Shown here one piece after another: positions 8,171 through 13,806 of a stretch of DNA of 64,000 nt (positions are counted from its first letter, which is position 1; every line of letters starts with the position of its first letter). The stretch comes from Elsinoe ampelina (taxonomy: Eukaryota): assembly GCA_010093995.1 (NCBI GenBank), contig ML992502.1, positions 1,171,001 through 1,235,000 on the forward strand. Direction: 5' to 3'. The notes below the pieces were generated by a model. The model was not told the origin of the DNA. It saw nothing but the letters and a program-made list of their open reading frames with translations, and did not search any database. The position numbers were made by a program, and so were the translations under genes.

Positions 8171-8682
8171 GATGGGAAGAAGGGGGACGGGGGTTGAGAG
8201 CGGGGGTCCGGTGGAGGTTTAGTGGGCTGTGATGCGAGATTGTGTGCTAGTAAAACAATGATGGCGGTTTTGCTATTTGGTTTCGATCGTCGAGAAGTTC
8301 TTTGAAATCGAACATACTTGTTCGACCTTACAAGTTCCAATCCATGTCGTCAAAGACACTGGATTGAACGCATGCACGACTCGTTCCCTCAGCCCCCATT
8401 CGCTGGTCCCATCTCCAGCTGAGAATGATCTGCGCTCCGTCACCACTATGATCTGCACCGGCGTATAAGTAGCACGAAGCTACCCACCCGAGCGGGGTCA
8501 GAGAACACCAACAACACAGCTCCGTTTCCCGCATGCATGAAGCTGAAAAGGGAGGTAAGACAATCTATCTTAACCGGTGCGGCACACTTTTTCATTCCTA
8601 AATAAACCCACTACCTCAACCACCTTGCTCCCCCTCCCTATCCCGCACTGCTCCCCCCAGCCCTCTACACAAATCCAACACC

Positions 8683-10227
8683 ATGCTCCCCCTCCCCCTC
8701 ACCACCACCCTCCTCCTCCTCCTCCTCCCACCCCTCTACCTCCTCCTCACAACCCTCCACACCCTCCTCCTCTCCCCGCTCCGCACCATCCCCGGCCCCC
8801 TCCCCGCCCGCCTCACCAACCTCTACCGCTTCCTCTCCGTCCTCCGCGGCCACCACCACCTGACCCAACGCGCCCTCCACGCCCGCCACGGCCCCTACAT
8901 CCTCCTCGGCCCAAACTGCATCTCCACAACCGACACATCCCTCATCAACGTCCTCTACCCCCTGCAGAAACCAAGGTGGATCAAGAGCGAGTACTTCCGG
9001 ACCTCGGACTTTTTGCACCCGGTCACGGGGGAGGTTCTGCACGCTTCTGTCTCGGTGAGGGACGAGGAGGAGCACACGCGGATGGTGAGACCGGTGGCGC
9101 GGTTCTACACCACGACGGGGGTGTTGCGGTACGAGAGCCGGATGGACGGGGTGGTGCGGCGGTTGCTTCTGGAGCTGGAAGGGAGGTTTGTGGCGCCGGG
9201 AAGGGAGAGGTGTGAGATTGGCGAGTGGTTGCATTACGCGGCGTGGGATTTGATTGCCAAGATCACGTTTGGGAGGGAGTTTGGGTTTTTGAGCGAGGGG
9301 AGGGATGTGAGGGGTTTGATCGGGCAGAGTGAGCGGAGTTTGGATTATATGGCTTCTGTTGGGCAGATTCCGTGGTTGGATGGGTGGGTGGGGAAGAATA
9401 GGTGGGTGAGGTTTCCTGTCGGGACGATGGCTGAGGGGGTGAGATTTGCGAAGGAGCAATTGGATGGGAGGCTGAGTGGGGAGGATGAGCATGATAGGGA
9501 GAAGGAACCGGATTTGTTGGATGATTTTCTTGGGTTGAGAGAGGAGGATCCGAGTATTACTGATGAGAGGTTGGTGCAGTGGGCGTTTAGGAATGTTGCT
9601 GCTGGCAGTGACACGACTGCGATAGAGATGCGGGCTGCTGTCTACTACCTGGCGAAAGACCAGGCAGCTCAGCGACAGCTGCAAGAGGAGCTGGACCAGA
9701 CAGGCGTGAGTGAGAAAGTGCGACGGGGCGACGGGCTCAAGTACAAGGATCTGTACACCTTGCCATACTTGGGAGCAGTGATACACGAGAGTCTCAGGAT
9801 GCATCCCGGCATTGCCTTGAGCTTGGAAAGATTGGTGCCGAGCGAGGGATACATCCTGCCTAATGGCACGTACCTGCCCCCGGGTACGATTGTTGGCATT
9901 AATCCGGCAGTGATCAATCGGTTGCCAGAAGTCTTTGGGGCCGATGCCGATACTTTCAATCCCGAGCGGTGGCTGCAACGGCCGGAGGAATCGAACGAAG
10001 AGTTCAAGGTGAGAATCGGCCGGATGAAGGAGACTGACATGACCTTCGGTCGTGGCAAGAGAGTATGTGCTGGCAGACACATTGCTATGGTAGAGATGTA
10101 CAAGGTCATCGCTCCATTGTTCTCAACCTTCGGGATTCGACTGGTCGATCCGAAGAAAGAGTGGAAGACCAAGAACAGTTTCTTTCATCGACAATGGGAC
10201 ATGGATGTGTACCTGGAGAAGAGATGA
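8683..10227 (+). CDS. Cytochrome P450 monooxygenase (intronless, 514 aa)
   Basis: N-terminal membrane anchor and PGP hinge, AGSDTT I-helix, ESLR (ExxR), PERW, heme motif FGRGKRVCAG. Confidence 0.96.
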   Translation: MLPLPLTTTLLLLLLPPLYLLLTTLHTLLLSPLRTIPGPLPARLTNLYRFLSVLRGHHHLTQRALHARHGPYILLGPNCISTTDTSLINVLYPLQKPRWIKSEYFRTSDFLHPVTGEVLHASVSVRDEEEHTRMVRPVARFYTTTGVLRYESRMDGVVRRLLLELEGRFVAPGRERCEIGEWLHYAAWDLIAKITFGREFGFLSEGRDVRGLIGQSERSLDYMASVGQIPWLDGWVGKNRWVRFPVGTMAEGVRFAKEQLDGRLSGEDEHDREKEPDLLDDFLGLREEDPSITDERLVQWAFRNVAAGSDTTAIEMRAAVYYLAKDQAAQRQLQEELDQTGVSEKVRRGDGLKYKDLYTLPYLGAVIHESLRMHPGIALSLERLVPSEGYILPNGTYLPPGTIVGINPAVINRLPEVFGADADTFNPERWLQRPEESNEEFKVRIGRMKETDMTFGRGKRVCAGRHIAMVEMYKVIAPLFSTFGIRLVDPKKEWKTKNSFFHRQWDMDVYLEKR

Positions 10228-10259: not shown

Positions 10260-11708
10260 CTACTCGACCAGGAAGCGATTTAATAGAGCCACGTTCCAGT
10301 CTTGGAAACGACGAGCATCATTCGGCAGAATACTGTTGGCTTGTCCCAGCTCATCGACAAGAGCGGCTTCCAGTGTTGCGGGCAATGTCAGCTCATCGAG
10401 GGATATGTTCTGTGAGTTCAGCTTGGTGGCTTCTGCTCTTGGCTGGATCAAATGTCGCTTGTAGAAAATCTTGACAGCGGGTTCGGGTTGCCCTGTATAG
10501 GTGGATAGAGAGTAATACACTAACGGAGAGAAGATCCAAATCTACGCTGTTCAGCATAAATGAGTGGTAGAGATTGAGAGTACATACGGTAAAGTCATTG
10601 TACCTGCCCTGAAACTTGCGAGCTCCAGAGGTATCAATGAGAGCTAGAAGATACGACGAGAGCCACTTTGACACTTGATAATGCTCTTCCGAGTTGTCAA
10701 CTTCGGACTTGATACGCTTAAGTAGTGGCTTGAAGAGTCTGATGCCCGAGCAAAGGCTGTCTACCTCTCCAAGTGGTGAGCCGCACTTGCTACAGGCAAC
10801 GCTGCCAGTAGTATCTGATACCTGAACCAGTCAGCCTTGGGGAGACTCTCGACCGTATCACGCAGGTCACGAGGCATGTATCTTTCCGAAATCCTTTGAA
10901 AGCCAATTCTCTAGCAGTCCAAGTGAAATGAAAGGACCAGATGGGGTAACCACGTCACGAGACGAAGCTCGGAGGGCTACCTAATCATCGTTGCTGTCGG
11001 GCGAATTGTATCGGAGTTGTTCCGTAGTAGCGGGTGTGGACCCAGGGAAGGCCTCCTTCTTATTGCCCATGATATGGATATTGGAGAATCCTAGATTATG
11101 AAACTTACTGTAATGTTCGTACAGTCCTCTTGTGACACCAGGATTGTCAGTGTGTCCACATACCCTACTCCGGACCTTGCCGTGAGCTTGCTGGAAGCAC
11201 TGTAGCCTTTGCCATTGACTTGATCGTGATCATGGTCTTCTTCGGGCTTGTGACAGTGCCAGAGATCCATCATCTCCGCCCACCCTTCCGAGGGGAGATC
11301 TTTATAGGACTTTACAGTCTGCCGATCCAATAAAGGACCGTTACATTCGTCTCCGTTAGCAGACTTGCCTCCACAACAGAAACACGAAGATTGTCCAAGT
11401 TGGCTAGCGGTCCATAAAATCTTGTTCTGTTCCGAAGTGGCCGTGGACCGTCTTGATCGTGATAGACCTACCAGCCGTGAAGTCCTTGAAGTGGCTGGCG
11501 GCGATGGCAAAAGCTTTGTGTCATGTTGCTCCGAGACAGGAGTGTAAAGTCTGATTCTCTCTTCCTGTCCATGATGTTGCAAGTTGATGGCATACCCAGA
11601 GTCAGTAATTTGTAATCTGGTGTTGCTGTCAAGGCCGGCTTCGATCTGGACGACCAGATTTGTGGACTTCACATATGGTAGATGTTCTGCGAATAGCACG
11701 ACCGCCAT
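10260..11708 (-). CDS. HECT_2 / E2C-binding protein (IPA1/UBE3D-like); exons 11708-11109, 10821-10588, 10541-10260
   Basis: DLPSEGWAEMMDLWHCHKP motif, CSKC, IWIFSP after splicing. Confidence 0.85.
10874..11070 (-). ncRNA. Intron-encoded box H/ACA guide RNA, predicted U2 snRNA Psi42 guide (snR81-like)
   Basis: Hairpin GGGC/GCCC, GGAG/CTCC, TTCC/GGAA with pocket strands AAGAA and GATAC complementary to U2 GUAUC-U-G-UUCUU; H box ACAGCA 15 nt below the pocket top; second hairpin followed by ACA+3 nt. Confidence 0.8.
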
Positions 11709-11948: not shown

Positions 11949-13443
11949 CTAGTAGTACGAGCTTCGACTCGCACTATATTCGCGGCCGGTGCCCGGGAAT
12001 GCACCCACTGGCTCTGCTGAACTCCCTTCATCCCCACTGTCATCCTCATCGCCTGTGAAGACTTGCTGGGAAGGATCTACTGGACTTCTCATACTGCTCA
12101 AGATCTCTGGTGCCAGAGTTGGTGGTGTATACGGAGCCGGAGTGTGGTATTCTCGTCCCGATGGCATTTGCGCAAGCAGCGGCTCAAAGGCCGGAATGAC
12201 CTGTACGTTGACCTATGCCTTGTTAGCATCGTGATGTGTCGATGTCCGCGAGCCTTACAGTATCGTTCGACTTGACCCATTTCGCCTCCAACCACTCGAT
12301 GACCCTGGTCTCCTCAAACTTGCCAGCATCCATGCCCCAATCGTCCTTGCCCTTCTCCACTTTCCGATCCTCCCTCTTTTCTGTCCAGCTCTGCTTAAGA
12401 CCTTTGAAACCCTTTCGCTTCCCGCTGTCGTCGTCAGATAGAACACCAAGCTCCCTTTTAGCTCCTCGCAACCACGCGATAGCTTCTCCGGTCTTTCCAG
12501 TGTCCTCAGCGGCGATAGCGAACCATCGAGCGGCTTTGGCTCTTGCCGTCTTCCGAAGATCGTCAACGTATTTGACGAGATCATCATCGATCTTGTTTGA
12601 TCCAAAACCTCCAGACCTAGGAAGCAAGCCTGAAGCTTTCGCAGCATGATCAGCAGCGGCAATGCATATCCTGGCGTAGAGGTTCGCTCTCGTCTTCGGT
12701 ATACTCGGAGCTGAAATCATCCATGACTTGCTGTCCTTGTCTCTGTCATCTGCTACAGCTGCAGCATAAGGATCGTCTTTGAGTGTGACGGTGATGGTTG
12801 CTTCTGCAAGGGCCAGAGATGCGAGAGCTGAAGCAGTGGTAGTGGCGACATCAAGTGGTGGTGTGGCGTCCACCGTCGGGTTGAGTGAAGTGATGTAAGC
12901 ATGTATGCTATATGTATCCAACAAATGCTTCATTGCCGTTGCAAGGAACGAAGCTCGTACTTCCGAGGATGGTGAGATGGTACGTTGTAGCTGAAGCAGA
13001 CTTGATCGAGCCAGGTGACTGTACGTGTATGCTAGTGTCTGGAGCACGAATGCTAGCTCATTACGTAGGCCCTTGACTTTGGCTCGTTGTGGCTCGCGAC
13101 CTGGCACTCCGGCGCTGAGCGTGGTCCTCCATTCTGTGATGAGATCTTTGGTTTCTGTTATGGAGACCTGTACTTGACCTCCATAGCTTGTGATACTTTC
13201 AGCGTCTGGAGCGCTGTGATATATGCTTAACAGATAAGGTAAGTAAGAATTGAGTGCATCTTGTATGACGGCAATGTTCGTGGCTTGTGATGCAGGAGGA
13301 AGTCGTTTGTGTTTCTTCAAAACATCACGAACCAGTGCTCTTTGTGATGTGGCTGTCAAAAGCAGTGAAGGATGGCTGTCGCTCCTGAAAGATGTCGTCA
13401 AGGCTGTTGCAGATGTGGTTGGGAATGTGAATGGGAACGGCAT
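11949..13443 (-). CDS. palC: pH-response regulator PalC (Bro1-like domain); intron 12213-12258
   Basis: N-terminus MPFPFTFPTTS, KDDPY, GEAIAWL, KSNDT|VNVQ..MPSGRE and C-terminal YY, as recalled for PalC. Confidence 0.85.
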
Positions 13444-13806
13444 GGTTCAGTATTGTGATCCATCCAGTCAGGGTGTTGAGATCGGCGAGACAGGGATGGA
13501 ACGCATTCAAGGGGTCAAAGTGTCTAGACTGATCACCCACTGCAATTGGCATGCAATGATGGATGAAATGACAAGAGATGGTGATTTGATGGGAAGCACA
13601 CTTGGAAGAGTCGGTCATGTTTCACGTGCCCCTTGGCTGTCAAAGTCCAAGAAATGGGGTTGAAAGTCACACTTGTAGACCACACGGCACATGATCATCA
13701 AAATGTACTATTTATGGGTATCGCAATGCTCTAAAATAATCCTCTCCCATGCTTGATCGTGATTCCTGTGGCTGGTACACAGTGGTATCCGACCATGCCG
13801 TTCAAC

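Follow-up and report, generated by a model that had tools for sequence, protein, structure and literature searches.

The uridine of U2 small nuclear RNA (snRNA) that adjoins the branch-point recognition sequence, numbered 42 in yeast and 41 in vertebrates and Schizosaccharomyces pombe, is modified to pseudouridine (Psi) in yeasts and animals alike. In Saccharomyces cerevisiae, this position is served by the box H/ACA RNA snR81, the 5' pocket of which guides U2 Psi42 and the 3' pocket Psi1051 of the 25S ribosomal RNA (rRNA). A pan-fungal survey of small nucleolar RNAs (snoRNAs), in the portion of the report available, recorded snR81 in the genus Saccharomyces only (PMC5824354), and human and Xenopus SCARNA4 were described as restoring Psi42 in yeast cells with a deleted snr81 (PMC5733568). 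The S. pombe RNA pugU2-43/44 was reported to have been found by searching for the guide complement (PMC5473140). For Neurospora crassa, the available part of a survey predicted no guide for snRNA pseudouridines, and its Table 2 listed Nc ACA9 as an orphan, intron-encoded RNA of 201 nucleotides (nt) and Nc ACA8 as a 192-nt RNA with an ACA pocket guiding Psi1509 of 18S rRNA (PMC2780460). A 2021 screen for conserved fungal RNAs described another intronic H/ACA RNA, in a gene for a vacuolar sorting protein, and U2 snRNA went unmentioned in the available part of that report (PMC8216456). In the literature consulted, no U2 pseudouridine guide was reported for filamentous fungi, and the supplements of PMC5824354 and PMC2780460 may hold such an RNA under another name. 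Here, we describe a candidate for this role, a predicted intronic H/ACA RNA on the minus strand at positions 10874-11070 of a 64,000-nt stretch of the Elsinoe ampelina genome (assembly GCA_010093995.1, contig ML992502.1, positions 1,171,001 to 1,235,000 of the forward strand). This whole stretch is called the window, and positions below are counted from its first letter.

Based on all comparisons, it was concluded that the locus belongs to a real, deeply conserved and previously unannotated family of H/ACA RNAs, which most likely guides U2 Psi42/41 in filamentous fungi. The element has H/ACA anatomy, is conserved in orthologous introns, keeps its guide letters invariant and carries covarying stems. 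A probability of about 0.8 was assigned to the interpretation that it is an intron-encoded box H/ACA guide RNA of ~200 nt directing this U2 modification. No new mechanism is involved, the RNA being of a known guide class. The predicted RNA of ~197 nt was delimited by covariance-model matches at 10985-11073 and 10874-10948; its 5' end is approximate, and its 3' end was set three letters after the ACA box (ACA + 3). It is contained in the first intron of a gene encoding a protein of the HECT_2 (UBE3D / E2C-binding-protein) family.

The first hairpin, read 5' to 3' on the minus strand from 11068, is GGGC-AAUAAGAA-GGAG ... CUCC-GAUACAAUUC-GCCC-G-ACAGCA. The lower stem P1 is formed by GGGC (11065-11068) and GCCC (10999-11002), the columns of which covary in the family, and the upper stem P2 by GGAG (11053-11056) and CUCC (11013-11016), all four pairs of which were changed on both sides among family members. 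Pocket 1 lies between these stems. Its 5' strand is AAGAA (11057-11061), complementary to UUCUU of U2, and its 3' strand is GAUAC (11008-11012), complementary to GUAUC of U2. The H box ACAGCA (10992-10997) matches ANANNA, a form that fits strictly in about two thirds of the family, and in the window it is spaced by 15 nt from the upper stem (canonical spacing 14-16 nt). P1/P2 and the corresponding stems P1'/P2' of the last hairpin enclose two internal loops, hence a hairpin-hinge-hairpin-tail fold with a pocket is present. The sequence elements and minus-strand coordinates of the first hairpin and the boxes, as quoted in an initial annotation made from the letters of the window, were all exact on checking. 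The H/ACA anatomy proposed there was likewise borne out by the covariation of P1 and P2, by the box spacing and by a second pocket hairpin ending in ACA.

The composite motif AAGAA / 20-75 nt / GATAC / 7-13 nt / ANANNA occurred once on both strands of the window. This sole copy was the site of the RNA, where both flanking stems were present. When 64 kb were simulated 100 times with a first-order Markov model, the bare motif was matched 0.23 times on average, and matches with the upper stem or with both stems appeared in none of the 100. Rarity of the motif alone would leave a few chance matches per genome; it is conservation that decides.

Conservation was examined in metagenome sequences, which were scanned with a HECT_2 alignment. 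The scan gave 419 stretches, 231 of them encoding relatives of the host protein, and the best 80 were kept; the proteins of these 80 loci were 25-39% identical to that of the window. An alignment of 18 HECT_2 homologues contained three metagenome-derived gene calls with an insert of ~100-120 amino acids at the junction of exons 1 and 2, which is the read-through of a long intron. By tblastn, nearly all loci that reached far enough had a gap of ~300-450 nt between the homologies to exon 1 and exon 2. Within this gap, almost every locus held AAGAA and, 30-50 nt further on, GAUAC or a one-letter variant of it. The flanking stems varied by locus yet stayed complementary (GGGCAAC/GUUGCCC, GGGUAUC/AUACCC, GGAUGG/CCAUCC, GGAG/CUCC and CCGA/UCGG).

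A covariance model of the first hairpin (R1) was built from 54 distinct copies with P1 and P2 as its only structure and was searched against both strands of the window and the 80 loci, 442,226 nt in total. It produced 77 strong matches with expectation values (E) from 4e-17 to 6e-6, the window and 76 of the loci contributing one each; a single further match had an E of 0.68. Every match in the loci was on the sense strand of the host gene, in the same intron and just after the exon-1 homology. The initial annotation had named pocket sequences not conserved in orthologous introns as grounds for refutation, and these 76 of the 80 loci are the result that bears on it. Among the four loci with no match, L028, L065 and L067 end at most 27 nt past exon 1, and L058 has no intron at this place. 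L058 thus encodes the host protein without the intron that houses the RNA elsewhere, and L063 has a short intron (~185 nt) with only a weak match to the first hairpin (32 bits, E 6e-6). In these two loci, the RNA may have been lost or be decaying.

No part of the RNA is more conserved than the guide letters. AAGAA was found in 77/77 copies, and the 3' strand was GAUAC in 66, GAUAU in 8 (giving a U-G wobble with G37) and UAUAC in 3 of them. Covariation was estimated in an alignment of 58 distinct rows, including the match with E 0.68, which had been fitted to the model structure and is therefore somewhat favorable to covariation. In this alignment, 84.7% of the P1 and P2 cells were paired compared with 66.0% after shuffling, and the covariation score was 0.496 compared with 0.195, none of 500 shuffles being as high. 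The score reached at most 0.144 when the partners were slid by 1-3 columns, and 8 of the 10 pairs of P1 and P2 had changes on both sides. Further, a model built from 53 loci with the window left out (R3) found only one site in the 64 kb, at 10985-11073 on the minus strand (50.1 bits, E 7.3e-12), and nothing else at E <=10.

The host proteins were used to place the loci among fungi. Those of L076 and L078 were 99% identical, and that of L080 91% identical, to Friedmanniomyces endolithicus entries, and the protein of L006 was 96% identical to an entry of a Dothideomycetes sp. Other loci had identities of 56-70% to host-protein entries of Aureobasidium, Podospora, Lasiosphaeria or Neurospora, and further ones of 47-51% to those of Sclerotinia or Golovinomyces. 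Judged by these similarities, the family is certainly spread through the Dothideomycetes and probably also occurs in relatives of the Sordariomycetes and Leotiomycetes, for which the identities are modest.

A similar picture was obtained with a closer relative. Public runs of three other organisms contained 8-20% of the 31-mers of the intron, and positions 10640-11300 of the window were compared with contigs of these organisms. One of them, organism B, covered all 661 nt at 89% identity, with 70 differing letters and 4 gap letters. The substitutions of B were counted from the first 40 of the 91 differences listed, all of which belong to B and follow in positional order to 11077, up to which the list was presumed to be complete. 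Exon 2 had 16 substitutions in 182 nt and the intron tail, from the 3' splice site to the end of the RNA, 12 in 52 nt (~23%), compared with 10 in the 197 nt of the RNA (~5%), where a 4-nt C insertion was also found between the middle and last hairpins. P1, P2 and the guide strands were free of the 10 changes inside the RNA. One of these turned a U-A pair of the apical stem into U-G, and two, at or beside the H box, resulted in ACAUCA and kept the ANANNA form. Two substitutions were located in the 7 nt immediately upstream of the RNA, and dense substitutions resumed at 11075 and 4 nt beyond 10874, that is after ACA + 3.

Two more hairpins follow the H box. The initial annotation had proposed an RNA of two hairpins, of which the first and the last were confirmed; a middle hairpin, GGUAGCC...GGUUACC (10945-10981, minus strand), located between the H box and the last hairpin, had been overlooked. 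It is formed in the fold of the window, and all of the 23 family members examined likewise had a long pocket-less hairpin after the H box. Its apical stem is recurrently ACCCUC..GAUGGGU. The sequence is conserved and does not covary, which suggests a protein-binding or localization element.

The last hairpin (10880-10942, minus strand) contains pocket 2 and is closed by a lower stem of AUCU (10942-10939) and AGAU (10883-10880). A covariance model of this hairpin (R2), based on 34 copies, matched the window at 10874-10948 on the minus strand (E 3.4e-5) and 55 loci at E <=2.3e-4; all matches were in sense orientation and downstream of the first hairpin, and none was stray. The 5' strand of the pocket is UUUCAC (10923-10928), near-invariant in the 34 aligned copies, and the 3' strand GGAUU (10890-10894) is conserved in the family. 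The nearly invariant ACA box (10877-10879) is followed by TGC to 10874 and is spaced 14-16 nt from P2' in most copies that parsed well. The upper stem P2' was paired in 91.6% of cases, and five of its five pairs were changed on both sides. The initial annotation had assigned this stem to TCCTTT/AAAGGA, which was rejected, as the family alignment supports another one, starting at the C of UUUCAC (10923) and pairing just 5' of GGAUU (10894-10890). The lower stem showed 57.7% pairing in fixed columns, because the spacer before the ACA varies by 0-2 nt. When parsed sequence by sequence, with parses selected for pairing, it appeared in complementary versions such as UCUAG/CUAGA, CCUCG/CGAGG, GUCUU/AAGAU and GCCAGAUCUU/AAGAUCUGGC. 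In the apical part of the last hairpin, NGAG was found in 26 of 46 distinct copies, compared with an average of 9.9 and at most 20 in 500 shuffles, and the apical loop in the window (10905-10915, minus strand) reads CUAGAGA. This loop resembles the consensus (ugAG) of the Cajal-body (CAB) box of animal small Cajal-body RNAs (scaRNAs).

In H/ACA RNAs, the two pocket strands bind the substrate on either side of the target, the 3' strand pairing with the stretch that precedes it and the 5' strand with the stretch that follows it. Therefore, GAUAC and AAGAA in the standard geometry specify the target 5'-GUAUC-[U N]-UUCUU-3'. The guide strands reported for S. pombe U2, ACAGAUAC / UGAAAA, imply a U2 sequence of GUAUCUGU-UC-UUUUCA (PMC5473140), and this stretch contains GUAUC-UG-UUCUU. 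If U2 is the target, the stretch to be expected in carriers of the RNA would be GUAUCUGUUCUU. On U2, pocket 1 forms 5 + 5 base pairs (bp), leaves UG unpaired and keeps both closing pairs intact. For yeast snR81, the same U42 G43 dinucleotide was reported as unpaired, with a functional minimum of 8 bp provided that the two closing pairs are intact (PMC6049503); the 10 bp of pocket 1 exceed this minimum. The 12-nt stretch of U2 is near-universal, and the available parts of two reports describe a pseudouridine there for which yeast, flies and vertebrates have dedicated H/ACA guides (PMC5733568, PMC6049503). The fit of the pocket to U2 proposed in the initial annotation was thus supported by the 5 + 5 bp and by the pocket strands being the invariant letters of the family. 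The U2 gene was found neither in the 64-kb window by the Rfam search nor in ten prokaryote assemblies contaminated with eukaryote ribosomal DNA (rDNA). A 17-nt U2 motif matched three viral contigs, which were rejected as not being U2.

The following sequence of events was proposed by analogy with yeast and animal H/ACA ribonucleoproteins (RNPs). The RNA would be transcribed within the HECT_2 host pre-mRNA, bound by Cbf5, Nop10, Nhp2 and Gar1, and freed from the spliced intron by exonucleolytic trimming. In the pocket of the first hairpin, GAUAC would then pair with GUAUC and AAGAA with UUCUU of U2, and the uridine immediately after the branch-point recognition sequence would be converted to pseudouridine.

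Several observations weigh against a U2 guide at this locus. No Rfam family reached the gathering score in the window and no match fell on the RNA in 20 loci; even at E <=10, nothing relevant was obtained in 10700-11250. The minimum-free-energy fold was not unusually stable compared with shuffled sequences (z = 0.20), a score that is uninformative for RNAs of the H/ACA class. About 23 of the 77 copies read ANANNG followed by A at the H box (alignment A4, columns 95-103), the middle hairpin is non-canonical for an H/ACA RNA, and the guide duplex is only 5 + 5 bp long and A/U-rich. In the three UAUAC copies (L076, L078 and L080), a U stands opposite C41, a mismatch beside the target that, judging from yeast data, should lower activity at this duplex length. 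The U2 sequence itself was taken from the available part of the S. pombe report (PMC5473140) and from general knowledge, not from the genome of this species, and the scan for pocket-1 sites covered 18S, 5.8S and the 5' part of 25S rRNA. Finally, the stable RNA of ~200 nt is a predicted one, as are its assembly into an RNP, its processing, the U2 target and the modification. The short duplex of 10 bp leaves room for a genuine H/ACA RNA whose pocket 1 guides some other rRNA, snRNA or mRNA containing GUAUC-UN-UUCUU or a wobble variant, the match to U2 being coincidental. It adds to this that the comparison used a U2 sequence from the literature and that the rDNA contigs lack the 3' third of 25S. 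However, no GUAUC-UN-UUCUU site was present in 79.7 kb of contigs with 18S, 5.8S and the 5' part of 25S rRNA, U2 offers a near-universal stretch already known to have dedicated guides, and guide letters that are invariant across very divergent hosts fit an invariant target such as U2. Another target was judged unlikely.

The strictly conserved position in one intron of one gene could also be understood if the structured element acted in cis on splicing or expression of the HECT_2 mRNA instead of guiding modification in trans. Both spliced and intron-containing forms occur among the contigs of the run X3 described below, and a middle hairpin with a conserved apical motif would suit such a role as well. 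A cis element would, however, leave unexplained why H and ACA boxes lie at the canonical 14-16 nt from two internal loops and why invariant unpaired loop letters stand beside covarying stems, and it was considered more improbable still than a different target. As for a chance resemblance in an ordinary long intron, to which the insignificant fold energy and the absence of an Rfam match might point, it was refuted by the R1 matches in 76 of 80 orthologous loci, by the strong covariation and by the E of 7.3e-12 of the leave-out model R3, and the simulations with a full match in none of 100 stand against it too; its likelihood is negligible. The preferred interpretation hence remained that of a U2 Psi42/41 guide.

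The target of pocket 2 was approached through its consensus, with ..UUUCA(C) as the 5' strand and (G)GAU(U/A).. as the 3' strand, 14-16 nt from the ACA. About 20 loci had other versions of this pocket while the first hairpin was constant, a contrast pointing to the U2 pocket as the family's core function. The versions form lineage classes (L008, L011, L012, L014, L015 and L018; L027, L043, L052 and L077; L004, L041 and L047; L059, L062 and L075), examples of which are ACUCAUUCGUC/GUAUAUCA, UUUUC../AGAAAGUGU and CUUUCA/UGAUAG. The explanation is either a switch of the second target or a target that itself varies. Eukaryote rDNA was collected from species-representative assemblies of prokaryotes, where its occurrence indicates contamination. 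At least 62 loci (L081-L142, 61 distinct contigs) were obtained, which contained 18S, 5.8S and up to 2.2 kb of 25S rRNA genes; the fragments had plant-like, yeast-like and filamentous-fungus-like types of 18S. A scan of these sequences for pocket 2, in open and in closed form, gave as its best site GGGUAAUC[UU]GU(G/U)AAAC in 18S rRNA, ~281 nt from the 3' end of that rRNA. It is perfect only in the GUGAAAC type (L121, L130 and L133), and the GUUAAAC type (L085, L097, L120, L124, L140 and L142), which we take to be typical of Pezizomycotina, has one internal C-U mismatch with the pocket; with this mismatch, the site was not adopted as the target. A 5.8S site, CGAAUC[UU]UGAAC, was rejected since it forms only 4 + 4 to 5 bp. 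No convincing site for the consensus was found in approximately the first 2.2 kb of 25S in these contigs, which come from other eukaryotes.

Tentatively, both pockets of the RNA can be imagined as dedicated to U2, which would make it a double guide and the fungal counterpart of animal scaRNAs, a possibility that we hold as the less probable one. U2 would be an attractive alternative to an rRNA target: the constant UUUCA has the same sequence as the 5' strand of U2 stem IIa and would accordingly be complementary to the opposite strand. On such a reading, pocket 2 may bind this 3' strand of the stem (UGAAA, complementary to the UUUUCA stretch of U2) together with the end of the loop, and its target may be the uridine equivalent to human U2 Psi60. 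The 5' strand of the pocket, ..UUUCA, is constant and the 3' strand differs by lineage (GAUU, GAUA, GUUU, UGAUAG and AGAAAG), which a double guide would explain because the loop of U2 is lineage-specific. The NGAG-rich loop and the middle hairpin may then be localization or assembly signals, and the whole unit may have resided in one HECT_2 intron since the early radiation of filamentous ascomycetes. If pocket 2 were also directed at U2, this would bear on the existence of scaRNA-like dedicated snRNA guides in fungi. The assignment of pocket 1 to U2 Psi42/41 is the interpretation followed below.

The host gene lies on the minus strand. Exon 1 (11109-11708) is an open frame of 200 codons with the ATG at 11708, intron 1 (10822-11108) is 287 nt long with GTAAGT..CAG ends and a CTGAC branch site at 10834-10830, and exon 2 (10588-10821) follows. 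The three exon pieces tested all matched Pfam HECT_2 (PF09814), with E of 1.6e-40 for exon 1, 1.2e-10 for exon 2 and 3.3e-10 for the third. The protein of exon 1 was 100% identical over 200 amino acids to P0001, a 371-amino-acid protein named by NCBI ubiquitin-conjugating enzyme E2-binding protein [Elsinoe ampelina], and P0001 continues from exon 1 directly into exon 2. One contig of the run X3 skips precisely the 287 nt and another covers the entire intron. The intron is real, because the X3 contig joins exactly across it; the run was taken as RNA by guess only, and the depths of its contigs are no guide to abundance. Both the IPA1/UBE3D-like host gene and the 287-nt intron of the initial annotation were therefore upheld, the former by the HECT_2 matches of all three pieces and the latter by the sequence and the spliced joint. 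Yeast IPA1 is presumably a member of the HECT_2 family.

A long open frame on the plus strand (8602-10227) is convergent with the host gene, with ~35 nt between the two stop codons. Its C-terminal end contains FGRGKRVCAGRHIAM, which resembles the haem-binding motif of cytochromes P450. The upstream neighbor (12223-13446, minus strand, with more coding sequence to ~11949) aligned with the N-terminal half of P0005, an 818-amino-acid model from another Dothideomycete in which a BRO1-type domain (PF03097) is fused to HECT_2. The fusion indicates that the two genes adjoin each other in either fungus, P0005 itself probably being two genes merged into one model. In L027, an Aureobasidium-like locus, a box C/D snoRNA (Rfam snoZ13_snr52, 79.6 bits) was located at 2512-2614 on the minus strand, ~1 kb upstream of the host gene.

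No guide for U2 Psi41/42 has been reported among fungi outside Saccharomyces in the sources consulted, and the family described here would fill this gap for filamentous ascomycetes. The family is also a clear example of an intron and its guide RNA being kept together while the host protein diverged to ~30% identity. A covariance model is ready for annotating the family, and the RNA makes U2 modification open to testing in fungi that are genetically tractable.

Finally, the RNA was compared with the described guides. The same U2 position is served in animals by the H/ACA guides SCARNA4/ACA26, the 5' stem of non-eutherian SCARNA15, and Drosophila scaRNA:PsiU2-38.40.42; these are Cajal-body RNAs with CAB boxes, and no homology to the fungal RNA is demonstrable. 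In SCARNA4 the pocket seems to be placed differently, the 3'-terminal pocket being cited in a related test in the part of the report available (PMC5733568). The S. pombe RNA pugU2-43/44 (SPNCRNA.1709) is likewise a fungal H/ACA guide for the branch-point region of U2. According to the available account, it differs in targeting the next two uridines through strands placed in its 3' pocket and in being located downstream of RPC10 rather than in an intron (PMC5473140). Nc ACA9 and Nc ACA8 by their size, and Nc ACA9 also by its intronic location, would fit a Neurospora copy of the family, a lead that is given by their descriptions only.

The closest counterpart in function is snR81, and here differences and likenesses have to be set side by side. 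Homology to snR81 was not supported. No Rfam match to the RNA was found in the window or the 20 loci when the snR81 check proposed in the initial annotation was carried out, and no sequence or covariance-model similarity was detectable. Compared with snR81, the RNA has an extra middle hairpin, and its last pocket is a different one, with no match in the examined rDNA to 25S, where the Psi1051 site would be expected. Its home is an intron, whereas snR81 is, as we take it, an independent gene. Further, the snR81 duplex is longer, ~14 bp as estimated from a two-pair mutant that keeps 12 in the available part of the report (PMC6049503), compared with 10 bp in this RNA. On the other hand, both RNAs are of the H/ACA class and ~200 nt in length, both carry the U2 pocket in the first hairpin, and both leave the same U42 G43 dinucleotide unpaired. 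The wording 'functional equivalent' of snR81, by which the initial annotation had described the element, therefore proved apt as a statement on function.

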